From assembly GCA_000165345.1 (NCBI GenBank), contig CM000432.1, positions 224,001 through 288,000 on the forward strand: DNA of 64,000 nucleotides. Reading direction: 5' to 3'. The notes under the pieces are model-generated. The model did not search any database. It saw only the letters and a list, made by a program, of their open reading frames with translations, and was not told where the DNA came from. A program made the translations under genes and the position numbers. This document shows, one piece after another, positions 28,536-63,662 of the stretch; the stretch's first letter is position 1, and every line of letters starts with the position of its first letter.

Positions 28536-28590
28536 TTGCATGCGCATATAATTCTTGAATGCATGCATGCATTTTCATGTGGACGAATTA
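28536..28590. promoter_or_regulatory. Cluster CTTGCATGCGCAT...GAATGCATGCATGCATTTTCATGTGGACGAA: three GCATGC boxes plus an ATGTGGAC motif, upstream of acid phosphatase paralog 1
   Basis: Seen directly. The same GCATGC plus ATGTGGAC combination recurs at 59228-59362 and 63567-63662. Confidence 0.4.
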
Positions 28591-29188
28591 TTAATAGGCG
28601 GAAAAAAAAGTCAGTAGATTGTAGAGAGAAGAAAACAAAAAAAAATAAATAACTGATAATGAACTAATATAAAGTATAATTCGGTTTTTACATTAATTTG
28701 GACAAAATTGGTAAATTAATATACTAAACAGACCTCTAGTTTATCTAGAAAACTAATACTGTATGCTTAGAATATTCATTTTTAAAACACATATGATTAA
28801 ACATAATATTATTATTAAAAGAATAATTTTTACAAATGAAAATTCAATCAAATTTAAATAGATTGAATTTTAACACTTTGATCTAGAATTAATTGAATCT
28901 ACAAATTTCAAAATGTTCAATAATATTTAATTCACGCATATTCAATTAATTTCAGAATTTTCGAGATAACATTGTAAGAACAACTGACAATTTTAAAAAT
29001 AAGTTACATACAATTCCTTTGCAATTCTTTGACATGCAATTTAAATTAAAAAAAAAAGATGAGAATTAGAAACCCTTTTTTTTTGTAGTACTTTCACATC
29101 CCCATTAATTTAAAATTAAAACAATAATTCCCTGTTTGATATTTTTGACAAGTTTTAAATATCTTTCAAAGTTTTTATTTAGACAAGA

Positions 29189-31159
29189 TTAATTTGATTT
29201 CGATCTCATAGCCTAATTTATTGTGTTAATAGTTTTCAATTATAAGAAAAAAAGGAATACTTTATATATAACCTACCTTAATTGAATACAATATTATTAG
29301 GGAAGTTAAAGCCCCAAGTAAGAAAGACAAAGAGTAACTTAGGAAAGGAGTATTGATACGATAAACTCCATTGAAATTACCCTCAAGATTCTTTTGGTTT
29401 TTATTAGAAGAACCTTTAACAGAATCTGTCTCATTTAAAGATTTTTCATATTTATTTGTTGATTCTAATATTTCTTTTTTACCAATTTTTTCAAATTTGG
29501 CAAATTTACTTGTTTCGAAAAATTTGTAAGCCTAAAATTAAAATATTAAGTTAATTTAAATGACTTTCCATTAAATTAAAGAAATAAAAAACTTACATGA
29601 CAAATTTCGTTTCCTTCACATCCTTTTAATTTATCTGTTATAACCAATCCATTATATAATAATCTAACATAGTAAGGAAGATTCTTTTGAACTGATTCAA
29701 GTTTTAAAAGACTATTTGCCTCCCCTTTGTATTCCTGTTTTTCATAAGGATCATAATAAATCTCAAAATTAATAGTAGAAGCATAAGGTGGTAAGTGCTC
29801 ATCCCAAGCATGTAACGAAGATAATAATGGAATAACTGTCAAATCATGCCCTGAGAAAAGAATAAATTTAGGTGCTTTAATTTCCTTCTTGGAAGAATTA
29901 TGATACTCATATTTATTACATAAAGGATTGAGCAAATATTCAAAATTCATTAAAAGATCTTGGCTCATAAAAGCTTTGTTTAGAGCAGAATTTGAACATA
30001 ATTCCTTTATGTTTGATAATCCGTCATTTTTATTTTCATAGAATAATATAGCATCAAGTATAAAATCTCTAATTTCATACATAAATCTACTAATATCTGA
30101 TTTGGCTATAATTGAATCATTCCATGTAAACACAGAAGATACTTCTTTTTCTATTGTTGCCATGGTTCTTTCAAGTAGATTATTTTTATAAAAAGCTTCT
30201 GGAAGCTTATTATCATCCCCAGAACATATTGTCATAGATATACAATCAAGTAATTCAAATGGCCAAGATCTATTAAGATCATTTAATTTAGCATCTTTTT
30301 CCAATTCCATATATAAATGTTTACGATCTTCCAACAATTCTTGAAAATTTTTGGAGGTGAAAACATATTTTAATACTCGAGAATTGTCTACGAGGTTCTT
30401 ATTTGCAAACAAATATTCAGAATGAAAATCCATTGTATAAATGGGTAAATTTCTAAATCTTTGGAAAGTTTCTTCTTTACCAAAAATATTTTCTAATAAA
30501 CTTGTAATTAATGCAGCAGCAGAAACTATGGTTCTTTGTGTATCGGATGATCTAATATACATTTGATTTTTAAAATCACTAATTTCCAATCCACTCTTTG
30601 TTACCAAATGTTCTCCTTTAAAATAAGCTTTAGCAAGTATTTTCCCATTAATTCTATGTTGTTCATATCCTTGTGAAATGAGCTGACCCATCTTACAAGT
30701 ATTAGTTAAATTATTTTGCCATTGTTTTGTTTCATAATGTTTTGAGAATTTCAATGTTCGAGTTTTACTTTGTTTTTCAAAAGCTGAAGCGGAAATTAAA
30801 GATTTTAAATCACTACAATCCCAGTTTTGTTTATACCCTTCCCAACATTTAAATGATTTTACTGGAGTTCTTGCTCCATGCCTAGAAACTACTTGTAATT
30901 GAATTAATTCCAATCTATTAAATAGCTCTTCATCTCTTAATCTCGGGATTTTTTTAATTTCTTCAAGGTTGCTAGTATCTGCACAAAGACTAAATTCGGC
31001 AGGATTCACAATTTTTCCCAAATATCCATTTTCATCTACAACAAGATCACTCTCTAATGCATCTGAATTTGATGAAATTGTTTGATTCTTTCGCTCTTGT
31101 TTAATTACACAACCAACAAGGCTGAAAAATGACAGAAGTACAACAACTCTCATTTCCAC
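29189..31159 (-). CDS. Histidine acid phosphatase, membrane-anchored (paralog 2 of tandem pair)
   Basis: Exon 1 is 31159..29597 (VVSRHGARTP signature, signal peptide MEMRVVVLLSFFSLVGC). The first intron 29596..29532 sits at the identical position after ...EICH. Exon 2 is 29531..29277 and encodes a TM helix LSYSLSFLLGALTSLIILY. A putative short last exon 29212..29189 follows the intron 29276..29213, but this last exon is uncertain. The gene has the same orientation and the same exon structure as the gene at 25947-28022. Confidence 0.7.
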
Positions 31160-31790
31160 AGGAATCTTAATGTAACTGGATTCAATAAAACAAAAAAAAG
31201 ATTATTCGAAGTTATTTTAATAACTAAATTCTTGTCCTATTTTTCTCTAAGATTAGTTCGTATAGAATTTCAAATTTCTTTTCTTTCCAAAAAATTCCTT
31301 CAATTGATCTGACAAAAAAGGTGAGTAGAAAGAAAAATTAAACAAAGAAATTCTCCTTAAATGGTGTGTTTTTGTTAATATTAATCTGCTATTTCGAAAT
31401 CAAAACAACTAAATGTAATTAAAAACTAAACATGTTTTAAAATTCTTCAATCGTCTCCGTCTTGTCTTTAGCATTCATTTATTTTCAAATAAAAAATAAT
31501 TGAGCACAATTTTTGTATTTATTAAGTGGTTAAATTTTACATTGAACCACTTTTAATTTAACAAGTAATAAATTTACTGAATTTTAATAATTTTATCCAC
31601 ATTAAAATTTTAATTACGTGTTTGCATGCACATTTTTTTAAAAAATTATTAAATATACAAAATATTATTTTTCTTTTAAGAAGATTTTAATTAAAGAAAA
31701 AAACGAAAATTAATTATTAAAAAAATCGACGTTCAATTAAGTTTGAAAATGAATAATTATAGATAAAAACCAAAATTTGGATGTTTTGAA

Positions 31791-33890
31791 CTACTTTTTT
31801 TTTGACATATTTATTCTTAATGTAAATGGTTGTCTATTGTTGATATTTTTAATAAGATTTGGAACATTGTTAATGTTATTTCCATTATTATTATTATTAT
31901 TATTATTATTAGAATCTGTAATTTCAGAATAATTGTTACTAATATCACCAAATTCTTTTAATTTATCACAATTATTTTCAATGCATGATGTTTCGGATTC
32001 ATTTGAAATAATATTTGGGGTCTTTAAAGGTAGAACTTTAAGCTTTTTGCTAATATTATTGAGTTCATTATCACAATGAGTATCTGTCTGGATACTATTA
32101 TTAACATCACTTTTCAAATCATTTCCAACATTATTTAATTGACTTTTATTATTATTATTTAAACTCAAATCTCTTGTAATAGTATTATTTAGTTCATCCT
32201 CATTTCTAGCTCTTTTGTTAGAAGAACTTGTTGATTGTTGCGAAGAAATAAAGTTTGAAGTGGCCTCCTTAACTGAATTATGTACATTATTATTTATTGA
32301 AGCTTTAATAGCTTTAGCATTAATTCTAGATTGTTCTCTAAGATGTTTGGGAAGATCTTTGGCTCTCAAATGTCTAACTTTTAAATCGATCGAATCTTTA
32401 TAATTCTCGACTTCACTCCAATTCATAATAAAACCAACAAAATCTAATATTGCTCCTCTTAAATCTACAACTGGAGCAGTCCCTGAAGAATTTGAAACCC
32501 CTGTAACTCCTGTTGAACTTGAACCATTATTGCTATTACTATTATTTAAAACTAAACCAATATACATACTTTGAGCAAAAATAAATCCATCTTTAGCTTC
32601 ATCCTGTTCTTGAATAGCTTTTGGCCAAGGCCTAACTTGAAGACCCTTAAATGTTTCAAGTTTTCTGACCAAAAATCTTAATTTACTTTCAATCCATCCA
32701 ATCCATTTATGAAAAGCTTGTTCATTATTTGATAACATTTTTACCTGTATAAAATGTTTATGCTTTTCAAAAAATAAAAATGGTGACCAAACATCATGCC
32801 AAGTTGCTTTGTCATTTTCAATATCTTGAATTATACGATAAGCTCTTTGAAGTTCATCTGTTATTACTCCTAAAGTTGTATGTGTAACATTATGTGTTGA
32901 ATTCATTGAAGGAAATGCTGGTGTAATTATAGGCATTACATGTGCTCTATCTTGTGGATTTAAATTAGGATTCCATACTCTGAAACCCATTAATCCTGGT
33001 GTATTCTTAGGTACTTCTTTAATTTCACAGAGTATTACAGGATTTTTCCACTGCCATGTTTTATATATATAAAAGAATCGATTAATTATTTGACTTGGAG
33101 CAGCATTTGGATATAATTGACAAATTCTTGCTGTTAGTATTGCCCATGATATTCCACCTAAATAACCAAGTACATTACTATATATTCCTCTTGCCTTACT
33201 CCAATGTTTTACAAATCTTAAAGCTGTTCTAAATGATTCTTTATTTGGTACAAGTTGTAAAATCATATCATTTACTCTACAACCATTCAATGATCTTGCT
33301 GTTTTATCATCCACATTTTTAAGTAAATCATCATCCAGGGTATTTAAATCATTTGGAATTCTTGATAGATTTAAACATGCAAATAATAAATCCATTTCCA
33401 TTCCATGATAAACCATCTTAATAATTGGTGTATAAGCATCAGGTACCGGTTGTACTTTTGTTACATTAATATCTTGTTGTAATTTTGCTAAAAAGAATGA
33501 AAAAAATGATTCTCTTGAAATATGTCTTGGTGCTATACATAAAGTATCAATATCAGATCCTGCTGCTACAACTCCTAATCTGTATGATCCAAATGTAAAT
33601 ATTCCTCCACCAGCAGAAAGAGCTTCTTCTTCATTCATACTATGTTCTAGACTTGCTTCATATATCCATTCTCTAACTAATTTATTTAAAGAAGCTAATA
33701 CATATTCTCTTTTTTTCATACCTTCTACACTTTCATATAAATTCTCTTGTCTCATTGCAATTATTAAGTTTTCTGTTAATTTATAATCTTGAGGAGTTGC
33801 CATAGCTTCTGATATTGGTGGAGTCACACCATATTGCTTTTTAGGTACCGAAGTTAAACCTTTAGATAATTCCAAATTTACTAGATCCAT
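31791..33890 (-). CDS. PAP: Nuclear poly(A) polymerase (canonical PAP)
   Basis: 699 aa. QYGVTPPIS...GGIFTFGSYRLGVVAAGSDIDTLCIAPRH...LNGCRVNDMILQLVPN...SNVLGYLGGISWAILTARICQLYPN...HVMPIITPAFPSMNSTHNV aligns along its length with human PAPOLA, including the catalytic Asp triad region. The C-terminal tail is Ser/Asn-rich and non-conserved. Confidence 0.9.
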   Translation of the reverse strand: MDLVNLELSKGLTSVPKKQYGVTPPISEAMATPQDYKLTENLIIAMRQENLYESVEGMKKREYVLASLNKLVREWIYEASLEHSMNEEEALSAGGGIFTFGSYRLGVVAAGSDIDTLCIAPRHISRESFFSFFLAKLQQDINVTKVQPVPDAYTPIIKMVYHGMEMDLLFACLNLSRIPNDLNTLDDDLLKNVDDKTARSLNGCRVNDMILQLVPNKESFRTALRFVKHWSKARGIYSNVLGYLGGISWAILTARICQLYPNAAPSQIINRFFYIYKTWQWKNPVILCEIKEVPKNTPGLMGFRVWNPNLNPQDRAHVMPIITPAFPSMNSTHNVTHTTLGVITDELQRAYRIIQDIENDKATWHDVWSPFLFFEKHKHFIQVKMLSNNEQAFHKWIGWIESKLRFLVRKLETFKGLQVRPWPKAIQEQDEAKDGFIFAQSMYIGLVLNNSNSNNGSSSTGVTGVSNSSGTAPVVDLRGAILDFVGFIMNWSEVENYKDSIDLKVRHLRAKDLPKHLREQSRINAKAIKASINNNVHNSVKEATSNFISSQQSTSSSNKRARNEDELNNTITRDLSLNNNNKSQLNNVGNDLKSDVNNSIQTDTHCDNELNNISKKLKVLPLKTPNIISNESETSCIENNCDKLKEFGDISNNYSEITDSNNNNNNNNNGNNINNVPNLIKNINNRQPFTLRINMSKKK

Positions 33891-34306
33891 TTTTAATCTA
33901 ATAATAATTAATTAATAGAATATTTATTATATATTGATTTCAATAATTTAGTTATTATAGTATTCTTTTAATACTTTGTAATATACTACTTTCTCACTCT
34001 TTTTCTTTCCCCTTTTAAATCGAGAATAATGCCAGAGATGTAACTAAATAATCCAATAATATCTTTCAAGAACAAATTTTCTTAGATTCTTTTTTCTTCT
34101 CTTGTAAAATTCTCTATATATAATAATTATACCAACTTAATTTCCTATTTTTAAAATATGAGCTTTATATTTAAATTTACTCAGTCACAATTTTAGTTTA
34201 TTATAATAATTAAAATGTTAAAATAATAATATATTATTGATATATGTATACACGAATACTATTTAATCAATGTATACTAATTATATAGAAATATTAATAT
34301 AATTAA

Positions 34307-34338
<32 letters not shown>

Positions 34339-34888
34339 TTACACAAATAAGTATATAAATACAAATATAAATATATATATAAATACATATATGTATTTAT
34401 ATTTATGAATTCATATATATAAACATGTAAGAATCTATTTATTATTAAGCTTATTTTCTACTTGCTCTCAAAAATTCATCAATAGAGCCATCACGTTCTT
34501 TGTTTTGTTTTGATTAGAGTATATTATTATAAGACTATATAATGATTATGCACTTTTTCAAAGGGCCAGGATTAATTATTTATGATAAATTTAAACAAGA
34601 ATTCACTTTTATTTCTACTCTATATTAGGCTTTAAACAGCTCTTGAAAAGAAAAATCACAATTTTGATATGTTTAAACTCTTAATTTCTTTGAATTATAT
34701 CGATCACTCCTTCTTTTAATGTGAATTATCTTAATACTTTAATATTAGTAAGATATTCTTATTTAAATATAAAAAAATAAACTTCTCACAATTTTAAGTA
34801 ATTTATATTTCTTTTCGGTAATTGCATTAATTAATTATTCAACTTGTATATTGAATATATTGAATATGAACATTTTTGTCCAGAGTTA

Positions 34889-34911
34889 CCGCCAAATATT
34901 TGGCGCCAAAG
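34889..34911. promoter_or_regulatory. Tandem/inverted E2F-like boxes CCGCCAAATATTTGGCGCCAAAG about 80 bp upstream of the gene at 34992
   Basis: GCCAAATATTTGGC is an internal palindrome. Two TTTGGCGS half-sites lie in opposite orientation. Confidence 0.45.
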
Positions 34912-34991
34912 TCAATAATTCTGTATTTATTTGACAATAAAAAAACAAATCAGGAAAAAAAAAAAAAAAAAGAAAAGTAAATAAGGGACAA

Positions 34992-35873
34992 ATGAGTAAG
35001 TTAAATGAGTTCTTTGAAAAGAAGAAACAAAAGTCGAAAGGTTTGGGTGACTTGAGTAGTACAAAGAAACCAATAATAGGAGGATTGAAAGGTGCAACAG
35101 GTGATCCAAATATATCATCAGTAATATCAGAAGGCAATATAGACGATTGGTCAATTAATACTGATGTAAAAGATACTTCAGACTTTTTAATTTCTAGTAA
35201 GAATTTATCGGTAGATGGTTTGAGAAAACCATCAAATTCTCATATGGTTGTTGCAGTAAAGACATCAAAACCTGATTTTGATTCTAATATATGGAAATCA
35301 AAGACAGGTGATTCTTCGGGAATGAATGGATTATCTTTATCAAAAAAGAATGCCGGAGAAGATGAGGATGGGAAGAATATGAATGATGAGGAGAAGGAAA
35401 AACCTAAAGAAACTTTAAAGTATAATGTAAGAGCAAGGTTAGCAGCAAGAGGACAAAAAGTTGATTTTTTGAATGCAAAGGATGCAATTAGTTCAATGCC
35501 TACGTTAGCAGCAGCAGTAGCCACTACAAACAAGCCAAGAGGTTCAAATTTGACTCCATTAAATCCTGTTGGTACATCAGGAAATGATTCAGATGCATTA
35601 GGTGTTGCAACTTCTACTAATACATTTACAGAGAAACAAGCTACTAGCACAGCTTCAGCAACAATAGTTGAACAAAAGGATAATTCATGTGAAAGTACTG
35701 ATATGAAAAATGAAGAAAAGCATTCAGAAAATGATGAGAAGAGTGATTTGGAAGTTATTAAGCAGTTGAGAAACTGTAATTTATTATATTTTAATAAGGA
35801 GGTTGTATTTAATTGTATTGTAGATATTGAACAAAGCAAATTAAAGTATTCAAATATTGTTAAAGATTTTTAA
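34992..35873 (+). CDS. Hypothetical 293-aa disordered Ser/Thr/Lys-rich protein
   Basis: The ORF has coding-like codon usage but no recognisable domain. It may have additional exons. Confidence 0.35.
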   Translation: MSKLNEFFEKKKQKSKGLGDLSSTKKPIIGGLKGATGDPNISSVISEGNIDDWSINTDVKDTSDFLISSKNLSVDGLRKPSNSHMVVAVKTSKPDFDSNIWKSKTGDSSGMNGLSLSKKNAGEDEDGKNMNDEEKEKPKETLKYNVRARLAARGQKVDFLNAKDAISSMPTLAAAVATTNKPRGSNLTPLNPVGTSGNDSDALGVATSTNTFTEKQATSTASATIVEQKDNSCESTDMKNEEKHSENDEKSDLEVIKQLRNCNLLYFNKEVVFNCIVDIEQSKLKYSNIVKDF

Positions 35874-36136
35874 ATGAAATTTAAATTAGTTTAGATTATT
35901 TTTAATTTTATTCAAACAATTATTTATCAATTAATATTTTAGTGTATTTATTCGAATTTTTTTTTTAAATTTATTTCAATGATTTATATATCCGGTACCT
36001 TTATTTAGATCTTGTATACCGGCATTTACGTGGTAATAAAAAAAAAAAAAAATATTCTTTTTTTATTATTGGAAAAAAGTAGATTTTAAAAAAAGAGAAT
36101 TAATGCAAAGAATGATATGAGTAGATTATTACAAGA

Positions 36137-37792: not shown

Positions 37793-37815
37793 TACTATTG
37801 TTGAGTAGTTTCTAG

Positions 37816-38718
37816 TCATATTAATCTACTTAGCTGTTGAATTGTATCATTTGGATTTATTACATTATGTCCAATAACTCTTTTATCATTATAGATTTCG
37901 TGATCATTTCCACCAGGGTATGTTTTATCCCCAAAGAAGTGGATTTCATCAAACTTATTCTCAACATGTCTTAAACAATATCTTTTGTCCCATCCCTAAA
38001 TGAAGAAGAAAGTTAAAAACAAATAAAATATCACTAAATTTGAATTCTAGAAATTTCTCGACTTACCTGTGGGAATACATCTATTGATATCTGCCCTCCA
38101 ATAGAATATTGAAGATCAAGATCTGAAAACTCTTTTGATAAATCCTGAATAAACTTTTCTCTGATTCCATTCTTTTTGTCAAGCTCAAAGAATTCTAATC
38201 TCTCATCATAGGAACAATTTCTTCCAATTGGGGAAATATTCAACATTCCTGTTCTATATTCAATAAATGTACCTCTTTTGATTGGAATATCTAGATCTGC
38301 AATGTATCTTAAACAGAAATTGACAAATCTCTTGATGTTATCTTCTCCCAAATGTTTTGAAATGCTTTCTGAACTCACTTTTACTCCTTCATCGTGAAAT
38401 ACAACTCCATTTTCACTAAATATATAGTGACTACAAGCTAGCTCTAAAGATCAATATTAAATAAATTCCATTATAGAATAAAAAAAAAGAAAAAGGAAAT
38501 AAATATACAGTAAACTTACCATTATTCTGTAATTGCTCACATATTTTACTATAATCTGACCCACTAACTACTCCTATCTTAACTTTGCTCTTCGCATTTT
38601 TAAGAGTCATTACCATGTCCTCCATTATTGGTTTTCGTGGTAAAGTGAGGGTCCCATCTAAATCAAACAAAAATAACTTTTTTGAATCCATTTGATTATT
38701 TTTTGTGTGTAAACTCAA
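37816..38718 (-). CDS. PMM: Phosphomannomutase (PMM/Sec53), 3 exons
   Basis: Exons on the minus strand are 38718..38520, 38443..38067 and 37995..37816. The introns are 38519..38444 (76 nt, GTAAGT..TTTAG) and 38066..37996 (71 nt, GTAAGT..ATTTAG). The spliced protein carries the HAD motif [11 protein letters not shown], ...SENG...[22 protein letters not shown]...[19 protein letters not shown]...[18 protein letters not shown], and is collinear with human PMM2. Confidence 0.85.
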
Positions 38719-38824
38719 TTTCTATTGAACATTTATCTTAAAAAATAATAATAATAATAAATATTAAGCTAAATTCAAGCTTATTTATTTTTGCAATTAA
38801 AAATAGTTACCATTTATTTTGATG

Positions 38825-38838
38825 CTTGGCGCCAAAAC
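38825..38838. promoter_or_regulatory. E2F-like box CTTGGCGCCAAAAC in the divergent PMM/MCM7 promoter
   Basis: It lies 215 bp upstream of the MCM7 ATG and 110 bp upstream of the PMM ATG. MCM genes are classical E2F targets (established knowledge). Confidence 0.5.
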
Positions 38839-42892: not shown

Positions 42893-43343
42893 TTTTTTGT
42901 TATAATATTAGTGGATGCATGTGCAATGAAATCTTTATTTCCTGTTCATTCCAATCTTTAGTATATTTAAAATGGCTTAATAATTGTACATAAAATTTGA
43001 AAACTCATTCGTTAAATATTAAAGAGTAATAAGATATTTCTCTTAATATATTTAAATTTGAATTGATTTATCCAATTATTTTATTTTAAATAGTTTTGTA
43101 TCATTAATTTAAAATTGTGTGTGCAAATAAATAAGTGGTTTATACAAATAATATACCCATTAATTTCATTCCATTAAATATTTTTCTTCATTCAAAAAGT
43201 GGAATAATTGGAAAATAATTACTTAATAAAAGTAATTAAATCCCTAAAATTATTGGGTTGCACAAATACTTTCAATCATTATTTCATTCCACTTAATGTT
43301 TATATTAACATGAAAATATTAGAAAATAACTCGACTAAAATAT

Positions 43344-43367
43344 GGCGCCAAAGCGCTTTGGCGCCAA
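43344..43367. promoter_or_regulatory. Perfect 24-bp palindrome TGGCGCCAAAGCGCTTTGGCGCCA (two inverted E2F-like boxes) followed by TGCATGCA at 43392-43399
   Basis: Seen directly in the divergent spacer between the membrane-protein gene (ATG 42892, minus strand) and the kinase gene (ATG 43836). The 70-aa ORF 43208..43420 covering it is probably spurious. Confidence 0.5.
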
Positions 43368-43835
43368 AACGAGCGGTATCTAAAAAAGAAAATGCATGCA
43401 ATATTAAAGAAAAAAAATAATGTATGGCAAAATTTGAGGAAACAAAAATTAAATAGAATTAATAAGTATTAAAGAAGTAATAGTTGTTTTAGATATTTAA
43501 TTATTATTTATTATTAAATCAAAATTTTTATAATTGAAGAGGAAATAAGTATAAAATATTTGACTAATAATGAATAAGATTTGAAAGAAAAGGGAAATAT
43601 AGATCAAGTTTCTAATAAATCTGGCCTTATTTATTTCAGATTTTTACATTCTTTGTTATAAAATAATTCTTAATTAGTATTACATATTACTATTGCAAAA
43701 TTAATTAATTAATAATTAATTAAAGTTATAAATATTAGTAGAAACGACTTCTGGAATATATTAAAAGTAAGGGAGTGGTTTTCTTTTTTCTTTTTTTTTT
43801 GAAATAACTAAATTATTATTGGAATATTAGAAGTT

Positions 43836-44789: not shown

Positions 44790-45069
44790 TTAGTTGATAG
44801 AGAAGGAGTCCTCCAGAAATACCCTCATTTTTTCCACGTGTTTAAAAAAGTGTGTCAAAATGTCTACAACTGACCCTAATATGAGACCAAATAGTCAGCA
44901 TTACTAAGAGATGTTATTACACTTGACATGAAGTATTAGAAATCTAAAGCTTGGTAGGCTTGATAAGTACCCAAAAGTCTGATAAAATGTTGCTAATATT
45001 TGAACCAAGTATTTGATAATAGCACAAGTAAGCAAGTCATCTCTTTTTCGTTCCTCGCATACTTATACT

Positions 45070-45470
45070 GATACTAATACTACTGTTACTACAACAACAA
45101 CTACCACTACAACAACAACTACAACAACAACTACTACTACCACTACAGCAACTACTTCTACCACTACTACCACTGTTACCATTGCTATCACTGCTACCGC
45201 TGCTACTGCTACCACTGCTACTGCTACCACTGCTACTGCTACCATTGCTACTGCTACCATTGCTACTGCTACCATTGCTACTGCTACCATTGCTACTGCT
45301 ACCATTGCTACTGCTACCATTGCTACTGCTACCACTGCTACTGCTACCACTGCTGCCACTATCATATTTGCCTCTCGCTCTTCCCATTCTCCTCCTCATC
45401 TTCCTCCTTTTCATCCTCCTTTTCATCCTCCCCCTCCCCTCTTTTGCTCCCCTTTCCTCTCTTCCAGGAT
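45070..45470. repeat. Triplet-periodic minisatellite: (ACA/ACT/ACC)n, then 15-bp unit GCTACTGCTACCATT x about 8 with CAC variants flanking, then a CT-rich tract
   Basis: Seen directly. It would translate as poly-Thr / (ATATI)n on the plus strand, or (SSSNG)n / (VAVAM)n on the minus strand. It is preceded by an unusually GC-balanced 270 bp (44790-45060). Confidence 0.85.
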
Positions 45471-46168
45471 TGTTAATAACTAAAATCATTTCAAGCATTT
45501 TAATTTGGCTATTATTAATTATAATTGATCCAATATTTCGATATGGTATTTAACTATTTATTTTGAAAAGAAGAAAAAATATTAACTTTTCAATCTGTTG
45601 GATTCAATTTCTCATTACTTAATATATTTCTAATTATATTAATAATATTAACAATTTTAGGGTCAGAAATTTATACCATAAATTGAAATTATTTTTGCAT
45701 GTACTAATAAATTATTACGCTTATTATTTACAATGTCAAAAAAAAAAAGCGAAGTAGCGCCAAACCTGTTTTAATAGTTATTTTTTGACACGTAATAAAA
45801 AATTATTAAAACAATAATCGATTAAAATAGTATTTGACTTACAAAGTTAGGCAGCGAACAAGAAAAGCTATAATTCAGACATTTGAATATTAAAGTTTAG
45901 TTTTCTTCATATTCTCTTTCTTTTTAATAATTGTTTGGATTAATCGATCAACAATAAAAGTTGAAATGAATTGATAAAGGTTTATAAGATTTTTATTGAA
46001 TAAAGGAGGAATATTTGAATTTTATCAACTTTGAGGGAAGACAAATTTTCTTTATATATTTTGCCTTTAGATTTAAACAATTTTAAATTAATAAAGCTGA
46101 TTATTTGAATAAAGTGGAAGAAAGTTTTCTTTCTTTTATTTAATTAATTTAGTGGAATATAACTTAAA

Positions 46169-54476
<8,308 letters not shown>

Positions 54477-55250
54477 TTCTAAAACTAATTATTAATTTAC
54501 TTATTCAACATTTTTTTGAAAATTATAAATTAACATATCATTAATAATTATAGATATTTGTAGAAATCTTATATTAAGAAATTAAGCTTATTCTCTATAT
54601 TTTACTATTCATTTACTTACTTATGTTTACTAAATTTGATTTTCCTAATAAAAGATGATTAGAAACTTACTTAACTAAAATATTCTTAAAAAAAAAAGAA
54701 TCAAAGAAATAATCTAATAATAATCAAAAATGACTTGTAACATGTAATATTTATTTTTATTATTATTATTATTTGCACAATTAAAATTAATTATTTTTGA
54801 GACAGCCCGCCAATTTAATATAATTTAATATATTATTTAATTAATATTATTAAGTACCTTGAATAGTGTCTGGAAGAAGAGAAGTAAAGGAAAAGGAGAA
54901 ATTTTTTTTTTTACATTAAAAATAGGTAAAAAGGATCATATCAGTAAAAAACTTCCTTGAAATTAAACAGATATACAGATATATATATATATATATATAT
55001 ATAGAAGAATCTAAATACAAATAGTTTATTGTAACATATAATTTACAATCGACTATTTTGAAGAAAATTAGAAAGAAAAGGAATAAGAAGAAAAGAAAAA
55101 CAAGGTCTTGAATTTTCTTTTTAGTAATCTCAAGTCAAGGAAGAACTTAGTAAATTACTAATAACTGATACAATCCCAAGTAAAATAAGAAGAGAAGTCT
55201 ATTTAAAAAAAAAAAAAAAAGAATATTATTTTAAAAAATTTGTAATTCTT

Positions 55251-56315
55251 GTGATCATGAGTACCGACTTTATGAATGTAAGAAGAAGTGCTTGGGCTGA
55301 TGAGGATATTGACGACTTTGAACCATCATTTGATGAACCATTAAAAGGTTTTGAATCAAAACCTGATAAAGATGGTATTAAACATGTAATTAGTTATATT
55401 AAAGATAGTAAAGGTTCTACTATTAAAATCACAAAAAAAATTAAAGAAGTTAGAAATATTATAAAAATTAATAAGAATGTTGTGAATAGAAGATTAATTA
55501 TGGAAAGAAATCTTGCAGATAGATTCAATTCTGATACAGATGTTCCAAAACTTGGAGATGAAATATCTATTGATATTCCAAAGAATACAGATTCAATGAA
55601 CTTTCAAGATAAAGATAATGATGATGATTATTATTTCATGGATTTACCCACATCTAATAATAATAAACTATCAATGTTTAAAAAATCTGGAAATAATTAT
55701 CCATTCATTCTTGGTGATGAACAGATTGAAAAAATTACTTATGGACAACAAAATAACTCTATGAATGATATGAATTCATCTTTTACTGGTGGATTTGGAT
55801 CTAATGCTTCCTCTTCTAATGGACTAAATCTTGGATTTGGTACATCACTTACAAACAAAGGTGGAATGAGTGATGTTAAAACAACAGTTGGAAGTGGTAT
55901 AATCACTTCAAATATTAACTCCAGTAACAATACTGGAATTAATACTATTGGTACAAGCATTGCTAGTAATAATGCTAACAGATATCAACCTCCATTCCTT
56001 AGAACCACTTCCAGTAGTGCATTTGAAAGAGGATCAAATTTACAATCATCACATAGAGATGATTGTACAGTCAGAGTTGCAAATCTTTCTGAAGATGCAA
56101 CTGAAGAAGATCTACAAGAACTCTTTAAAACTGCTGGAAGAGTTGTAAAAGTCTTTCTTGCTAAGAATAAAAATAATTCCAAGAATACTAAAGGTTTTGC
56201 ATTTATTACTTATTCTAAGAGAGAAGAGGCCCAAAATGCTATTAGAAAACTTAATCGTCATGGATATGATAACTTGCTACTTAATGTAGAATGGGCAAAA
56301 ACTAAAGAAAAGTGA
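55251..56315 (+). CDS. EIF3G: Translation initiation factor eIF3 subunit G (eIF3g/TIF35), lacking the usual CCHC zinc knuckle
   Basis: The C-terminal RRM CTVRVANLSEDATEEDLQELFKTAGRVVKVFLAKNKNNSKNTKGFAFITY...YDNLLLNVEWAK is nearly identical in pattern to the human EIF3G RRM (ATIRVTNLSEDTRETDLQELFRPFG...KGFAFISF...YDHLILNVEWAK). The N-terminal SAWADEDIDD...IKITKKIKEV matches the eIF3g N-domain. No C-x2-C-x4-H-x4-C motif is present. Confidence 0.85.
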   Translation: MIMSTDFMNVRRSAWADEDIDDFEPSFDEPLKGFESKPDKDGIKHVISYIKDSKGSTIKITKKIKEVRNIIKINKNVVNRRLIMERNLADRFNSDTDVPKLGDEISIDIPKNTDSMNFQDKDNDDDYYFMDLPTSNNNKLSMFKKSGNNYPFILGDEQIEKITYGQQNNSMNDMNSSFTGGFGSNASSSNGLNLGFGTSLTNKGGMSDVKTTVGSGIITSNINSSNNTGINTIGTSIASNNANRYQPPFLRTTSSSAFERGSNLQSSHRDDCTVRVANLSEDATEEDLQELFKTAGRVVKVFLAKNKNNSKNTKGFAFITYSKREEAQNAIRKLNRHGYDNLLLNVEWAKTKEK

Positions 56316-56699
56316 ATTAAGGCAGGATAGAGACTCATGTCTGAGCCCGCCATTTATCAAGTTTTAATATAATGATCAATTTTATATTTATTATTATAGT
56401 TATTTTCGATACGAAAAATTATCACAAATTCATTAATTTACTATAATTTTAGAAAAAAATCGACTATTTGTTTAATTAATTAATTACATATACTTATTAC
56501 CTCTAGATTCTACAATTTTCTATATTATTATTCATAATGTTAATAATAAGCATGCTCGCTTTTGCGTAAACATTTGTTTACATGTCAGCTCTACACCTAA
56601 TTATCATTCGCTCTCTTTTATTCTTTTCTTCTTTTTTTATTCTTCTTTTCTCTATCGATTTATACTTATACTTGTACTATAGTTTTTTATCATATTAAA

Positions 56700-58742
56700 T
56701 TATCCAAATATGTGTTTATATCTCCTTAATAGACCATAATTTGTACCACATGCAATTTCCATTCCATCACTATCGTAATGTAATAAAACTACATCCTCAG
56801 AATCATCATTAATGTCATCACAAAAAATTGTACCTAAATTAGATCCATCATACAGTGAATGTATATATATTGCTTTTCTTAAAGAATTTTTATTTTTGGA
56901 AAAAAAAGCATTTTCATCGTCAATTATAGGACAGAATGGCGCCAATTGTCCATCATGTTGATTTAAATAGCAACTTGTATCTAATTCAAAATCAATAATC
57001 TGATTTTGACTTTGATTTTGGCAAGAATAATTCGTATTATTTATTGAATTATTATTAGTAATAGTTATAATTTCTTGTTCATTCTCAGATATTGTTTCAC
57101 CAGTAATAGTTGTTGTCAATGACATATTATGATTAGATCTATTAACTAAAGAAGAATTTTCAATATTATTTGATCCATAGAAACATGTGAAATATTTTGA
57201 TGCTTGAATAAATTGAGGTATAAAACCACTCATACTCATATAGCTACTATTTTCATGATTATTGTAATTTTCATTCAAATGTTGTATATTATTTGTATCT
57301 TCATTTTCTTGTTCGTATTCATTTAATATTAATCCATTGCAGTAAGTCATAATTATTCCTTTACTAAAACAAACATTTACACAATCAGCAGTTTGTATTC
57401 CTGGTAATGAAATTCTGAATTTAATTTCTACTTCACCCAAATTATTACATGTCCATACATTAATTTCATCAGTAGAAACTGTTAAAAAATTAGTAAAGTT
57501 ATTAATTTCAGTAATTTGATCAAAAAAGATGAATGCTTTAGGATGAAAGTCTCTAGTTCTTGAAATCTTTTTGCTTGAATTTGTTAGTAAATTCCATACT
57601 CTAATTGAACAACTTTCTTGTTTTAATAGTAAATACTCTCTGTGTAATTCTAAAAATTGTATATCTAATGATGATCTTAATTTTACTATAGTTTTTTCCT
57701 ATAAATATTAATTTTTTTTAATATTCATTTTATTTTTGTTTTGAATAAAAAATCAACTTACAAGGTATTCCCCATTTGATATATTACATAAATGTGCTTC
57801 TATTGTTGAATATGATGGTTGTCTAATAAAAAATAGTAATTAATAAGAAAAAAAAAATCGCATATCATTGATAAAACTTACCTAAAAAACACAACAGTAC
57901 CATCAGATATTCTCATTTCCAAAAAATTTTGGCCTTTAATTTGATATAGTTTATTATAATTACTCATATCCCAAAAAGTAAAATAATCATTTTGCGGATC
58001 TGCTACTACTATTCTTCCATTCCCATCTAAAGGAAAAAGTTTATTTTTTTTTTTATTATTTTTTAAACTCACCATCGAATTCAATAAATCCTGGATTCCC
58101 TACTTTAATTTGTTGAAATTCCTTTCCAATATTACTTGAGATATTTCTTTTTAACATTACATCTTCTATATTAAAAATAGTACAATTCAACATTGATGGA
58201 TCATGATGAAATGCTATTACTATTGTATTATTCAACTTGTTGTAAAATAAAGATCTTATTGCTTTATTTAATAAATATTATGATTTATCTTTTAATTGAA
58301 TTCATTTAATTTTCAAACTTACTTTCTGATGGAGATCTATTTAAAATACATAATATTTTATTATTATGCCTATTATATGCTGTTCCTAAACCAGAATCAT
58401 TTCTTTTTATTGATTTTTAATTAATAAATTTAATTTGATTTAATTATTTAAAACTTACAATACAAAAAGTATCTCTTTACTAAATACAACCTCAATAATC
58501 TTAGATGGTTTACTTAATTTACAATGCCCACGTATTATTTGCGGTAAATCATTTGTTATATTAAGAATACTACTCAATTTCATTCTTTTGAATTCCAATG
58601 TTTGTGATAGTGTTGGGGGTATTCTAAACTCATTGCTTTGTGCTCCTCCATAGTATTTATTTTGTATAATATTTTTCACTATTGATAAATTAACCCTTTT
58701 GTTTGTAACATTGTAATTTCTTATACTTTTCTTCTTTGTCAT
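56700..58742 (-). CDS. Six-exon gene encoding a protein of about 570 aa with WD-like beta-strand motifs and an Asn-rich insert; function unknown
   Basis: Exons on the minus strand are 58742..58459, 58402..58323, 58261..58073, 58026..57882, 57822..57762 and 57698..56700. All five introns are 46-63 nt and all begin GTAAGT or GTGAGT and end AAG/TAG. The frame is continuous across all junctions (…VFSKEILFV/LNDSGLG…SPSE/TIRSLFYNK…IEFD/DGNGRIVVADPQNDYFTFWDM…TVVFF/RQPSYSTIEAHLCNISNGEYL/EKTIVKL…SIRVWNLL…). Confidence 0.55.
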
Positions 58743-59227
58743 TTATTTAATTTTTTTAAAAATAATTCCTCTTTTAATTTATAACGAAAAAAAAAAAAAT
58801 TAGAAGTAAATGTTAATTCTAATAAAAAACCTCTTTGACCCTTAATTTTAATTCAATGCTTTATACTTAATTAATTTATTATCATTAATTTCACTATTGA
58901 CATATAATTTTTTTCAAAGTATTAGAACAAAATATTTATTTTATTTTATTTTATTTTTTTCAATTGATCAACTCTTTCTGTAATTAATTAATCAAAATAT
59001 TTTTTTTTTTAATAAAATAGTTGTAAAAAAAAGATATTTATATTTATTACACTGATCCCTTCTATATTAACGCATTTACTTCACATATTAAATATATTTC
59101 TTTGTCTTATTATTATTCTAATTTTTTTATTCCTATCTATTTAAAATTAATTAAAAAAAAAAATCTTTAGTGGTCAAAAAATGACGTGGCAATATTAAAT
59201 ATTTTTTTAAAAATTAATTTAAATAAT

Positions 59228-59362
59228 TTTATGTGGACGAAGATTCTCCAATAAAATATTTTTTTTAATTCAAGATGGATTATATGGACATATTAATTAA
59301 CAAGTTGCAATAGTTCCTATACCGGTGTTTGACAATTTACATGCAGATTTGCATGCACACCA
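59228..59362. promoter_or_regulatory. Upstream module TTATGTGGACGAA ... ACATGCAGATTTGCATGCACACC in the divergent spacer between the 6-exon gene and the MYND gene
   Basis: YATGTGGAC plus GCATGC boxes, the same pairing as at 28536-28590. Confidence 0.4.
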
Positions 59363-59698
59363 CAACAAAAAAATTGACCTAAAAAAATATCTAAAATATA
59401 AAAGTTAAAGAGGAAAAAGGAAAGCTTTCCAATTTTTTCTTCAAGAAGAAGGAATTAATTTGAACTAATTTTGGTAAGTAAAAATTTTTTTTAAAAATTA
59501 ATATTACTTTATTTTTTAATTCGCAAATGTATATAATCATGTGCAATTTATATCAATTAAAAAAAAAAAAATTAAACTTAAATGGCGGTAACACGAGTTT
59601 CAATGATTTAATTAAAATTTATTATTAGAATTTTTTTTTTTACTGAAATAATATCATCGTTATAGTTTATATAATAAGAAGTTAATTAAACAAATAAG

Positions 59699-60403
59699 AT
59701 GGATTCTTTAGATGAAGTGATTCACGAGAAATTTACATATGTTTTTATTCCATACCATGACTCTGACAAAATAGAAGTTAGAGAATTTTCTGGTAAGGAA
59801 GTCAACTTCAAGAATTTAATGCGCTCACATTTTTCCAGTAAATTAAGGAGTAGTGAAGTTTCTAAACTCCAAGAAACATTTAACAAGGAATCAAAAGCTT
59901 CAGACCAACTTGTTGAACAAGCAATCTTAAATAGTCAAAATTATGAAATTATTAGTCTTGTATTACCAAACAAAAGTAATAATTTTACAGCAACAAATGC
60001 ATATATTGATTCAATTGGAAGAATTAAAGAAATGCCTATTAATCCAAGAGCATCCAAAATTTGTTCAACTGATGTAAGAGGGGATTGCTTTATTTCATCT
60101 TCATTTGACGATGAATATGTATTTAAGAGAGTCAGTTTTGGTGAGGAAGAATATAATAAGCTTTGCAAAAATCCTCCATCTGCAGAAAATAGGTGGGATG
60201 CTTCAAAGATTTCAACAATGTTAAATAATCCAACAGATTTACTAAAAAGTAAAGAAGAAGATAAGATTTTAAATAGATGTGAGAGTTGTAGAAAAGAATC
60301 TGAAAAGACTTTACTAATTTGTAGTAGGTGTAAGAAAGTAGCATACTGCAATGTTGATTGCCAAAGAAAAGATTGGAGTTATCACAAACAATTTTGCAAA
60401 TAA
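59699..60403 (+). CDS. MYND-type zinc finger protein
   Basis: The C-terminal CESCRKESEKTLLICSRCKKVAYCNVDCQRKDWSYHKQFC is a canonical MYND finger (C-x2-C...C-x2-C...C-x3-C...H-x3-C). A GTAAGT at 59476 suggests a possible 5' UTR intron. Confidence 0.7.
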   Translation: MDSLDEVIHEKFTYVFIPYHDSDKIEVREFSGKEVNFKNLMRSHFSSKLRSSEVSKLQETFNKESKASDQLVEQAILNSQNYEIISLVLPNKSNNFTATNAYIDSIGRIKEMPINPRASKICSTDVRGDCFISSSFDDEYVFKRVSFGEEEYNKLCKNPPSAENRWDASKISTMLNNPTDLLKSKEEDKILNRCESCRKESEKTLLICSRCKKVAYCNVDCQRKDWSYHKQFCK

Positions 60404-60543
60404 TCTAATTAAAAAATGAAAAAGTAAGAAAAATCCATAAATTAATTTATAAAAATAGTTATTAATAAATACTAGAAAAAAAAACTAAATTAAATATAGA
60501 ACAATATACTTGTAATTATTATTATTACAAATTAATAATAAAT

Positions 60544-62583
60544 CTAAAGCTCATCACGAGCAGTATGTATCCAAATAAAGTCTAAAATAGAATTAACTTC
60601 TCTTTCTCCATCAAAATCTATTGGATTTGCCTTTTCTCTCTTCTTGTACAATTTTATTGTTGGAAATCTAAAGATTTTTCGACCAATTTGATCGTCTGGA
60701 ATAAAATTTGCTGACATGTCAATCTTTGCAACAAGAACATTAGTCTTTGATGTTACAATGTTAGCAACTTCATTATATATTGGGTCAAAGGTCTTACAAT
60801 GTCCGCACCATGGAGTATAAAATAACACTAATACATCTCTAGTAGAATCATAAACTATTTCTTTGAATGTGTTACCAACCAGAATAAAAACTGGTCCATT
60901 TTGTTTTGAAGGAGTTACTTGGGAATGATAAGTAATGTTCACCATTCCTGATCTTACTTCATCTATAAAATCACTAATAATGTTTGGTGAAAAATTAATT
61001 GAAGTATGGTTATTTAAAATAATCCAGTTTGATTCATTTGGTTTTCCTATTGATAAAATCTCTGCATTATTATTACTACTAGTAATACCACCAATACCTG
61101 TATTGCTTTCTAAATTATTTAAGTAAATCTTTGGTAAATCTAAATGATATTTCTTTGGAGGTGATACATTAAGGTCATTAATCATAATTATTGATGGAAG
61201 TAAGTCATCATCAATATGTAGAAAGTCCATAAATCTTCGATTAATTGGACCTTCATTTCCAGACATTACAAATAATGGTCTTTCTTCAAGATATTTATTA
61301 GATTTATCAGCTTTTTCGTTTCTAATAGCAATCACTCTCTGTAAAATATTATAAAATTGATGAATAATTGAAGATTCTTTATTAAGTTCTTCAATATAAT
61401 TTTCACTATTTCCACTAAAAATTAATAATAATATTGTGCCACCATTATCAATCAAATTACCTATAGTGTCTTTATTTAAAAATATAATATTTTCTTGTTT
61501 ATAATAATCAATAGTATTTAAAATTAATGCTTCTTCTTTAAAAGGGCCATTAATTGTTTTTACATGTTTTCCAGAATTAAATAAAAGTATTTTGGATTTT
61601 TTTTCATGATTTTCTATTATATCCGTAATATTAAATTGAAATTCATTTTTATCAAGAATATCTTTGTTAATTAATAAACTCTTTTTAAGGTCATTATAAT
61701 TAGCTTCACCAAATATAACATCATCATATATTTTACAAATATCAACAACTAATAAGTATTCTGTATTATTATATTTTTTTTGAGATTCAAATTCATGTAA
61801 ATATATTACTGAATATCCACTAATTTCCAAAAAGAATTTAATATTATCTATAGTAGAAAGTTGAATTAATTGTGATTTTGGGTTATTTTCTAATCTAGAA
61901 ATTTGTTGTATAATCCAAGAAATAACTTTCTTATGATATATATTCCCATAAAAATCAATAATTTTTAATTTTTGATTTTCTTCTTTTTTAACTAATTTAA
62001 TAGTTGGATAATCTAAAACATTAAGCTTCATTGATAAATTTGGGAATTCTGGAACATTTACTAAACCTATTAATAACTTTTTTGAATAGAAAAATCGATT
62101 AGGATGTTCTATAGAAAAATCATTAGAATGCTCAAAATACTTTACCATTTCATGTATTTGATTAATAGCTCTTTTGCTCATTCCACACCATGGTGCTGTA
62201 AATAGAATGATTAGATAGTCATTATTAGCTAATAAGTTTTCAAAAGATTCATCTGTTTGTATGGTAACAATTTCAAATATTTTATTAGTAATATTTTCAT
62301 TTACATGACTATTATCATCGATAACTTCTTCAAGGTCAATTCCTTTAGCTGATGTAAAATGCGATTCAATAAACGGAATAAGATCTTCTGTATTATCTTT
62401 ATTTGATTTATTACTACTTAGATTTATAAACTTTGTATTTGAATTTAATGTATCATTTAGTTCAGAAGTATTATCTGAAACTACATGTTTAGTTTCAAAT
62501 AAAAGCAATAAAAAAAGTAGTGAAGTTATATATATTAGTATAAATGAAGTGGTTGAACGATTTATATTATTTAATCCCCACAT
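60544..62583 (-). CDS. ER-resident protein disulfide isomerase family member (two thioredoxin-like active-site domains, C-terminal RDEL)
   Basis: N-terminal signal/anchor. The first site FTAPWCGMSKRA is CxxS-type. The second site FYTPWCGHCKTF is canonical CGHC. The C-terminus ...IHTARDEL is a KDEL-type ER retrieval signal. Confidence 0.8.
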   Translation of the reverse strand: MWGLNNINRSTTSFILIYITSLLFLLLLFETKHVVSDNTSELNDTLNSNTKFINLSSNKSNKDNTEDLIPFIESHFTSAKGIDLEEVIDDNSHVNENITNKIFEIVTIQTDESFENLLANNDYLIILFTAPWCGMSKRAINQIHEMVKYFEHSNDFSIEHPNRFFYSKKLLIGLVNVPEFPNLSMKLNVLDYPTIKLVKKEENQKLKIIDFYGNIYHKKVISWIIQQISRLENNPKSQLIQLSTIDNIKFFLEISGYSVIYLHEFESQKKYNNTEYLLVVDICKIYDDVIFGEANYNDLKKSLLINKDILDKNEFQFNITDIIENHEKKSKILLFNSGKHVKTINGPFKEEALILNTIDYYKQENIIFLNKDTIGNLIDNGGTILLLIFSGNSENYIEELNKESSIIHQFYNILQRVIAIRNEKADKSNKYLEERPLFVMSGNEGPINRRFMDFLHIDDDLLPSIIMINDLNVSPPKKYHLDLPKIYLNNLESNTGIGGITSSNNNAEILSIGKPNESNWIILNNHTSINFSPNIISDFIDEVRSGMVNITYHSQVTPSKQNGPVFILVGNTFKEIVYDSTRDVLVLFYTPWCGHCKTFDPIYNEVANIVTSKTNVLVAKIDMSANFIPDDQIGRKIFRFPTIKLYKKREKANPIDFDGEREVNSILDFIWIHTARDEL

Positions 62584-62816
62584 AATTTTTCAACAGGAAT
62601 TGCCATAAGCTTTGAATTGATAAATTAGAATTGGCATAAATTCAATGCTGAGATTTAAGAATAAATAAGTGCAATTCACTCAGATCAATTACACTTTTCT
62701 TCTCTTATCTATAAATATACATATATAATTTATACATTCACTTTTTTTTTAGTAGTGAAATAATTTAATTTTTTTTTATCCTTATTTTGGTCAAATTACA
62801 TAATTATTAAATGAGT

Positions 62817-62838
62817 TTTGGCGGTACTTGCGCCGCCA
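62817..62838. promoter_or_regulatory. E2F-like element TTTTGGCGGTACTTGCGCCGCC in the divergent PDI/Bud13 promoter
   Basis: TTTTGGCGG matches TTTSSCGS. The inverted partner is GCGCCGCC. Confidence 0.4.
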
Positions 62839-62945
62839 CATGCTGATTTTGAATATATGTAAAATTTAATAAGGATAAAAAAAATGCGGAGATTGGGTCA
62901 TTACACTAAATATTCATATTCCAAAAGTTGTTTCCTTAGATAAGA

Positions 62946-63479
62946 ATGAAAGGAAGTGTAGTATATAGAGATGAAGAAGGAAGAATTATTGATAAGGAGT
63001 TATGGTACGAGAAGAAAATAAATGAAAAAAGGAAATCGAAGAAAAGAAGTATTAAAAACGAAAATAAGTTCACAAAAGATCCAGAATTCGTTAAATATAG
63101 TGGTGGTATTATTCAATATGAGGAAGCCAAGAAAAAATATGCGGGTGAGAACAATCCGGTAATTCAGGATGAAATAATAGATGGAGGGCGTTATTACTTG
63201 AGTAAAAGTTATGATGATGAATTAAAGAAAAAAGATATTTGGGATGACCCGATTAAACTAATAAATGCGCAGGATAACAATATAAATAATTCTGGTTTGA
63301 GGAGTGATTTTGTTGATTTGGAAGCTAAAAGGCTTAAGTGCAAATTTATTACTCCTCAAAATAGATTTTCCATTGAAAGCGGTTATCGTTGGGATGGAGT
63401 GATTAGAGGTAATGGTTTTGAAGAAAATTATCTTATTAAAAAAAATGAAAAAAATAATACTATTTATAATATCGACTGA
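62946..63479 (+). CDS. BUD13: Bud13/CWC26 (RES complex) family splicing factor, short form
   Basis: The C-terminal RFSIESGYRWDGVIRGNGFEENYL matches the Bud13 signature (RF.I.PGYRWDGVDRSNGFE). The N-terminus is Lys-rich. Confidence 0.6.
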   Translation: MKGSVVYRDEEGRIIDKELWYEKKINEKRKSKKRSIKNENKFTKDPEFVKYSGGIIQYEEAKKKYAGENNPVIQDEIIDGGRYYLSKSYDDELKKKDIWDDPIKLINAQDNNINNSGLRSDFVDLEAKRLKCKFITPQNRFSIESGYRWDGVIRGNGFEENYLIKKNEKNNTIYNID

Positions 63480-63566
63480 TTTCATTTAAGTTAAAAACTA
63501 TTTTATTTTATTTTATTTTTTAATCATTAATCCATTATAATTAACATAAATTTATAATTTTTTCTT

Positions 63567-63662
63567 GTCCACATGAAAAAATAAATATGAATTCCGGACA
63601 CGTAATTTAATTACTTGCATTTGCATGTTGCATGCAAATTTTGGAAAAAATGGTCCACATAA
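63567..63662. promoter_or_regulatory. 3'-flank module: GTCCACATGAAAAAAT ... CTTGCATTTGCATGTTGCATGCAAATTTT ... GGTCCACATAAAAAAT (two ATGTGGAC motifs in reverse orientation bracketing GCATGC boxes)
   Basis: Seen directly downstream of the Bud13-like gene. It probably serves a gene beyond the window end. Confidence 0.35.

Follow-up and report, generated by a model that had tools for sequence, protein, structure and literature searches.

We identify ATGTGGAC as a conserved promoter word in a 64,000-nucleotide stretch of Cryptosporidium parvum chromosome 4 running from cgd4_820 to cgd4_1090 (hereafter the window), a word that we did not find in published Cryptosporidium motif lists. Its sites exist, are confined to promoter-bearing spacers, are conserved amid diverging flanks and, with one inversion seen among them, may be orientation-free. 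Judging from these sequence comparisons, we consider ATGTGGAC a likely conserved cis-regulatory element, most plausibly a putative site of a sequence-specific transcription factor. Nearly all Cryptosporidium transcription factors are without known targets, and a word that is as well conserved in these loci as the AP2_1 box TGCATGCA offers a concrete handle on gene regulation. The comparison drew on two corresponding chromosome regions in each of C. meleagridis, C. ubiquitum, C. canis and C. felis and amounted in total to ~74 kb of C. parvum DNA and ~44 kb from each of the four relatives.

An earlier note on this DNA had claimed four copies of the nine-base word YATGTGGAC, and the window does hold exactly four (sites 1 to 4; Table 1), against 0.34 expected from shuffled sequences, none of 100 of which reached four. 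Two of the ranges given there (59229-59241 and 63652-63662) were right, whereas the other two were shifted by +3: the strings TCATGTGGACGAA and, on the reverse strand, TCATGTGGACAAG are real but occupy 28575-28587 and 63564-63576 instead of 28578-28590 and 63567-63579. The extension said to be shared by two copies likewise exists (TGTGGACGAA, sites 1 and 2), but its GAA is not kept by the orthologs, which read ACA, AAA or AGA, and we rejected it as part of the motif and regard it as coincidental. Common to all four sites is a T-run followed by Y and ATGTGGAC, and the fuller consensus is a T-rich run, C, T or A, ATGTGGA, then C (sometimes A, rarely T or G) and usually A. Every TGTGGAC copy of the window is noncoding, and all four sites lie in tandem or divergent, that is promoter-bearing, spacers. 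Coding sequence leaves 26% of the window noncoding, and in this fraction ATGTGGAC occurs four times against 0.14 expected (p = 1.3e-5 for a pre-chosen motif). The recurrence had been called improbable, which holds against the shuffles but is not significant once the many possible words are allowed for: ATGTGGAC ranks 44th among all 8-mers in the noncoding fraction, and 52% of order-2 Markov simulations of the noncoding segments yielded at least one 8-mer with a GC count of at least 4 and at least four hits. Because the motif was chosen post hoc and 52% of the simulations match it, the count within the window proves nothing alone, and the same simulations are what speaks for a chance recurrence without function.

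The orthologous spacers, to which the earlier note had pointed as a check, gave a positive answer. ATGTGGAC is present in the orthologs of all three motif spacers in C. meleagridis, C. ubiquitum and C. canis, and the surrounding sequence has diverged. Site 1 is kept in these three species as TTTCATGTGGAC, and its block GTCCACATGAAA[A/G]TGCAT is the longest invariant block of a four-species alignment in which the rest of the spacer is hard to align. Sites 2 and 3 are kept in the same three species, with C. felis reading CATGTGGAT at site 2 and the variant ATGTGGAG at site 3, and site 4 is kept in C. ubiquitum and C. canis, its counterparts being ATGTGGAG in C. meleagridis and ATGTGGAT in C. felis. 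At the variant site at 31595-31602, C. meleagridis has CATGTGGAA aligned and C. ubiquitum retains just the TGCATGCAAACACGTAA part; the one-mismatch copy at 59282-59289 is unchanged in C. meleagridis, whereas C. ubiquitum has ATATGGAA there and C. canis AAATGGAC. The spacer next to the right of the window holds one more conserved variant, TTTGCATGTGGAAAAAA (~13776 of locus L002). The motif core is ATGTGGA, with an eighth base that is mostly C in the group from C. parvum to C. canis.

An unbiased ranking of the 8-mers that recur in 12 kb of C. parvum spacer DNA, by their reappearance in orthologous spacers, put the E2F box first (six of six instances in all four relatives, the best-conserved spacer 8-mer of the sample), the TGCATGCA family second and ATGTGGAC third. 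Only TGCATGCA/ATTGCATG and ATGTGGAC were conserved in all of C. meleagridis, C. ubiquitum and C. canis in at least three different spacers. Joint conservation of 8-mers with four GC positions has a background of 6.6% per instance, which gives ~3e-4 for three spacers. Noncoding copies of ATGTGGAC exceed expectation in each of the five species (4 against 0.15 in C. parvum, 3 against 0.08 in C. meleagridis, 4 against 0.07 in C. ubiquitum, 5 against 0.18 in C. canis and 1 against 0.13 in C. felis) and sum to 17 against ~0.6; in genic sequence, with 0.45-1.0 expected per species, a single copy was observed, in C. canis, and none in the other four, against ~3.3 expected overall. The shorter word TGTGGAC is rare in the 16-22 kb ortholog loci (mostly 1-4 copies, with 7 in one C. 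canis locus), and its copies outside the motif spacers are mostly coding, as in thioredoxin WCGHC codons. Conservation in three independent spacers across three diverged species, improbable even at the generous 6.6% background, and noncoding enrichment in every species contradict a functionless chance recurrence, which we find scarcely credible.

Orientation bears on the level at which the word may act. In C. felis, ATGTGGAC is present at site 1 but inverted relative to the gene, the one inversion seen, which is expected of a DNA-level, orientation-independent site; the variant at 31595 is also oriented opposite to the other sites. The word contains ATG, and all four copies read GUCCACAU on the presumed target sense strand, so that, if 5' untranslated regions (UTRs) were long, it might instead work in RNA, by opening a short upstream reading frame or as an element of the UTR. 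Against such a role, the ATG lies on the strand opposite the downstream gene at three of the four sites, the frames it opens run to 5-15 codons and differ between species, and both the C. felis inversion and the different orientation of the 31595 variant relative to its gene run counter to it; we hold action at the RNA level to be very improbable. A small coding exon or upstream reading frame was rejected on the same grounds (5-15 codons, unconserved and mostly on the wrong strand), as was a hidden RNA gene as the origin of the motif, Rfam and tRNA scans of the window having returned nothing.

The earlier note had also placed the copies near GCATGC boxes. GCATGC occurs at 10 positions in the window against 2.67 expected, and the edge-to-edge gaps from ATGTGGAC to the nearest GCATGC are 6, 112, 54 and 17 bp for sites 1-4, which bears out the proximity; the link holds at the level of promoter class but not as a fixed composite. 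GCATGC was found in five of five promoter spacers with ATGTGGA against two of ten others (Fisher ~0.007, post hoc and for the relaxed core), and with the strict ATGTGGAC in three of three motif spacers (p ~0.08). A fixed GCATGC-ATGTGGAC composite was rejected: the tight TGCATGCA-TTTT-CATGTGGAC juxtaposition is kept across species at site 1 only, order and distance vary elsewhere, and orthologs sometimes lack an exact GCATGC. The co-occurrence is thus real at the promoter-type level, with no rigid composite. The window has two kinds of promoter spacer, one rich in E2F boxes (for example 14451-15476, 20675-22697, 33891-34991 and 42893-43835) and one with GCATGC and few or no E2F boxes, and the split is not clean, spacer 42893-43835 holding E2F boxes together with one GCATGC. 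Spacers with ATGTGGA have few E2F boxes, and the E2F-class spacers of the window are without ATGTGGAC. The motif modules belong to the GCATGC promoter class, which is distinct from the E2F-box class of the neighbouring housekeeping genes. As a side observation, palindromic E2F boxes (TTTGGCGCCAAA) are clustered at 20955-20966, 34899-34910, 38826-38835 and 43343-43366.

The modules are compact (~100-200 bp), lie 280-560 bp upstream of start codons and also hold TGCATGCA and ACGT-core boxes (ACACGTAA, TGACGTGG). Published expression data bear on the genes downstream of them. Both cgd4_910 and cgd4_1100 belong to cluster 103 together with CpCCp1 and CpCCP2 (Oberstaller), which are AP2-F-dependent crystalloid proteins (2025 review, PMC12246861), and in sorted females compared with asexual stages the two genes show log2 fold changes of 5.4 and 3.1, respectively, being near background in asexual stages (Tandel 2019). 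In addition, cgd4_1050 is a member of cluster 44, which peaks at 72 h and six of whose other members are all female-up, and the DUF7899 gene is probably a member of this 72 h-peaking cluster. Peaks from sporozoite assays for transposase-accessible chromatin with sequencing (ATAC-seq) yielded E2F and poly-T motifs and no AP2 motifs, which fits GCATGC-class promoters that are closed in sporozoites. On the proposed mechanism, a protein would bind at the motif, and the motif, AP2_1 and the ACGT boxes would help to switch genes on late, in the female gamete or oocyst programme. That the motif contributes, with AP2_1 and ACGT boxes, to such a late programme is a tentative reading, based on three promoters only, and one we put forward as possible. 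Transmission requires sexual development and oocyst formation; if the female-stage link is true, the motif would help to explain how the female programme is switched on and could aid the design of stage-specific promoters in parasite genetics.

A different kind of protein might account for the same conservation. General architectural factors, of which the Reb1/Abf1-type factors in yeast are an example, could keep promoters nucleosome-free, mark boundaries or block read-through without being tied to female genes in particular. Just 88-175 bp separate the Bud13 stop codon from sites 3 and 4, which stand at the outer end of the upstream region of the next gene; the motif is frequent, with 5-6 conserved sites in ~22 promoter spacers; it was missed by the expression-cluster motif search of Oberstaller 2013, as a site that is not stage-specific might be; and the divergent pair at site 2 includes a sporozoite-high gene. 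However, the distance to the upstream 3' end is inconstant (88 bp, at least 530 bp, and no such end in the divergent spacer), every E2F-class spacer in the window is without the motif, those downstream genes for which expression data exist are late or female, and the sporozoite ATAC-seq peaks gave E2F and poly-T motifs only. We regard a general architectural factor as unlikely.

Several observations weigh against a conserved site for a sequence-specific factor and against its female-stage link, and they are best taken together. The recurrence within the window is on its own suggestive and no proof, and the sample is limited. Site 1 is lost in C. bovis, where the adjoining TGCATGCATGCA is kept. 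Conservation at greater depth is seen solely as ATGTGGAA, which in C. bovis stands beside TGCATGCA in the Bud13/START spacer, with another copy in the DUF7899/MYND spacer, and in C. muris 564 bp upstream of the phosphatase gene; it could partly be due to chance and is only suggestive, because a 7-mer is expected ~0.03-0.2 times per spacer. The distance of 280-560 bp from the ATG is large for so compact a genome. With regard to expression, cgd4_1070 (the other gene at the divergent site 2) and Bud13 are sporozoite-high, and the female-up genes cgd4_850 and cgd4_980 of the window have GCATGC but no ATGTGGA. Co-expression of the motif genes concerns three promoters only, and the third is assigned by inference, cgd4_1050 being identified as a fragment of the DUF7899 gene from identifier numbering.

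The features of the motif loci are collected in Table 1. Sites 3 and 4 flank the conserved blocks CCGGACACGTAA and TTGCATTTGCATG, the latter being retained by C. meleagridis, C. ubiquitum and C. canis, whereas just TTG and TGCATG of it are left in C. felis. The strongest footprint of the DUF7899/zf-MYND spacer is TAGTGGTCAAAAAATGACGTGG, near-invariant in C. parvum, C. meleagridis, C. ubiquitum, C. canis and C. felis.

Table 1. Motif sites, module elements and genes of the window and its right flank, in window coordinates; CRE, cyclic AMP response element
Feature	Position	Strand	Remark
Site 1, CATGTGGAC	28576-28584	+	right after TGCATGCATGCA-TTTT; ~555 bp upstream of cgd4_910 ATG
Site 2, TATGTGGAC	59230-59238	+	divergent spacer between DUF7899 gene and zf-MYND gene cgd4_1070
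Site 3, CATGTGGAC	63567-63575	-	88 bp past Bud13 stop codon; ~530 bp upstream of cgd4_1100 ATG
Site 4, TATGTGGAC	63653-63661	-	86 bp from site 3, same strand; ~445 bp upstream of cgd4_1100 ATG
Variant site ATGTGGAT	31595-31602	-	upstream of cgd4_920, inside string TGCATGCAAACACGTAATTAAAATTTTAATGTGGAT
One-mismatch copy ATATGGAC	59282-59289	+	52 bp from site 2, same strand
GCATGC cluster, TTGCATGCGCAT ... TGCATGCATGCA	28538-28571		site 1 module; known AP2_1 motif; TGCATGCA part kept as far as C. bovis
AP2_1 boxes CATGCAGATTTGCATGCA	59340-59357		site 2 module
AP2_1 boxes TGCATTTGCATGTTGCATGCA	63617-63637		between sites 3 and 4
ACGT-core box CCGGACACGTAA	63594-63605	+	between site 3 and TGCAT boxes; GGACACGTAA invariant in five species
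TAGTGGTCAAAAAATGACGTGG with CRE-like TGACGTGG	59168-59189	+	22 bases, 41 bp before site 2
cgd4_910, histidine acid phosphatase	26370-28022	-	ATG at 28022
cgd4_920	29576-31153	-	paralog of cgd4_910
cgd4_1030			eIF3g
DUF7899 gene	56700 to ~58742	-	multi-exon; ATG at ~58742; old models cgd4_1040-1060 by numbering
cgd4_1070, zf-MYND	59699-60403	+	ATG at 59699
cgd4_1090, Bud13	62946-63479	+	
cgd4_1100, START-like	start ~100 bp past window end		555 amino acids
cgd4_1110, AP2-F	~4 kb past window end		

The window has a GC content of ~26% and densely packed long open reading frames (ORFs). Its last 11 kb are 99.99% identical to GCA_031892065.1 CP029783.1 (C. parvum chromosome 4), the best relatives of its histidine acid phosphatase ORF are from Cryptosporidium, and gene identifiers were anchored via published tables. 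A 1159-residue AP2 gene to the right of the window (14993-18472 of locus L002, at about window coordinate 67.9-71.4 kb) was identified as cgd4_1110/AP2-F by identifier numbering and the Tandel table; the spacer upstream of this gene retains TGCATGCA but contains no ATGTGGA. The tandem duplication cgd4_910/cgd4_920 (window 26370-31159) is found in C. parvum, C. meleagridis and C. ubiquitum, and a single phosphatase gene stands at this position in C. canis, C. felis, C. bovis and C. muris (loci L009, L010, L016 and L017 compared). The cgd4_910 ORF stops at 26370, whereas its C. meleagridis ortholog continues for 89 more residues and leaves ~110 bp to the next gene; the 'spacer' 25827-26369 of C. 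parvum therefore probably contains a 3' intron and one more exon of cgd4_910.

Further words and repeats were seen alongside the motif. ACACGTAA(T) is a second recurring word, at 63594-63605 (+), 31614-31621 (-) and 45788-45795 (+), three copies against 0.27 expected, and it was not found in the published Cryptosporidium motif lists that we read. TGCATGCAAACACGTAA is kept upstream of cgd4_920 in three species, beside the variant ATGTGGAT/A. In the DUF7899/zf-MYND spacer, C. meleagridis and C. ubiquitum retain CTATACCGGTG (59317-59327), which C. canis has with a single change, and AAATGGCGG[T/C]AACA at ~59583-59596 is found in four species with small changes. An E2F-like half site, GGCGGAAAAAAAA, lies at 28599-28611, 15 bp past site 1, and is partly conserved, with CCGCC in C. 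parvum and CCGAC in C. meleagridis. Tandem repeats with units of 9-18 bp occupy 45088-45431, and the unit ACTGCTACCATTGCT is present 12 times at 45172-45354. Overlapping small ORFs (45013-45483, +; 45037-45498, -) enclose these repeats, and the stretch, treated as noncoding in the analysis, probably represents a coding repeat of low complexity or a gene missing from the annotation.

The earlier note did not recognise the motif from the literature, and our searches agree. Published lists for Cryptosporidium give only about six families of promoter motifs (AP2_1, AP2_2, G-box, E2F, GAGA and CAAT). Oberstaller 2013 has 25 motifs and the 2025 review a table of families; ATGTGGAC is in neither set, nor is it among the motifs of Mullapudi 2007 or those of the AP2 binding study (Oberstaller 2014), logos present only in figures not being searchable; GTGGAC/GTCCAC appeared in the full-text Cryptosporidium literature in primers only. 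The closest neighbour in the promoters themselves is AP2_1, whose TGCATGCA several ApiAP2 domains of C. parvum bind in vitro, among them those of cgd2_3490 and AP2-F/cgd4_1110 (Oberstaller 2013/2014; PMC12246861), both of which are female-specific AP2 factors. Like AP2_1, ATGTGGAC is a short word that is found in upstream spacers only, is conserved across Cryptosporidium and occurs in the same promoters, where the two touch at site 1 (TGCATGCATTTTCATGTGGAC); unlike it, ATGTGGAC is non-palindromic and has no GCATGC core, sites 2 and 4 (TATGTGGAC) being without even CATG. It was rejected as AP2_1 for want of the palindromic core. The E2F box TTTGGCGCCAAA is the other strongly conserved promoter word of the window, but its sequence is unrelated and it marks the other spacer class, without ATGTGGAC.

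A closer relationship might be suspected with the G-box-like motif 2 of Oberstaller (DTGTGGGG), of which the word could be a variant bound by the G-box-binding AP2 factor cgd8_810. The first six positions ([A/G/T]TGTGG) are common to both, both words are tied to late-peaking clusters, and cgd8_810 is female-specific with a 72 h peak. The G-box is defined as G.GGGG, however, and this G run is missing in ATGTGGAC: positions 7-8 are AC, AA, AT or AG and never GG in the orthologous instances compared (~24), and true GTGTGGGG copies stand elsewhere in the window (10431, 38876) and are distinct. ATGTGGAC was rejected as a G-box proper, and a variant read by cgd8_810 seems to us quite unlikely. An E-box (CANNTG) was rejected because C precedes ATG in about half of the instances and T or A in the others, and motif 22 of Oberstaller 2013 (HTKWYGAC) was rejected by inspection, a G standing where Y is needed.

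Outside the genus, the female ten-base element TGTRNNYACA of Plasmodium berghei is bound by PFG together with AP2-FG (eLife 2024, PMC10945693), and PFG homologs are listed for Toxoplasma, Eimeria and Vitrella, Cryptosporidium not being named in that paper. In the window TGTRNNYACA occurs twice against 2.7 expected and is not enriched, and neither match is at a motif site. One exact match, TGTGTGTACA at 10085-10094 (+), is located 27 bp before the start codon of the CpLSP gene cgd4_850, which is expressed in females; this is a single instance and compatible with chance. In likeness to the P. berghei element, the Cryptosporidium word would be a cis-element of female promoters beside an AP2 factor, with CCp/LCCL genes among the dependants, and TGTGGAC(A) fits TGTRNNY(A), the first 7-8 positions. 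The 3' half ACA is missing in the Cryptosporidium word, which therefore forms no palindromic ten-mer; its instances read TGTGGACAAG, GAA, CAT or AAA, and we rejected it as the PFG ten-mer itself. A more speculative and rather doubtful extension is that ATGTGGA[C/A] might be the site of an uncharacterised sexual-stage factor, possibly non-AP2 and conceivably a PFG/FD2 counterpart; the motif, TGCATGCA (AP2-F, cgd2_3490) and ACGT-core boxes would then jointly make up a combinatorial code for female-gamete/oocyst promoters. Of the systems compared, TGTRNNYACA of P. berghei appears to be the nearest functional analogue of ATGTGGAC, a resemblance that we take as a lead and not as membership.

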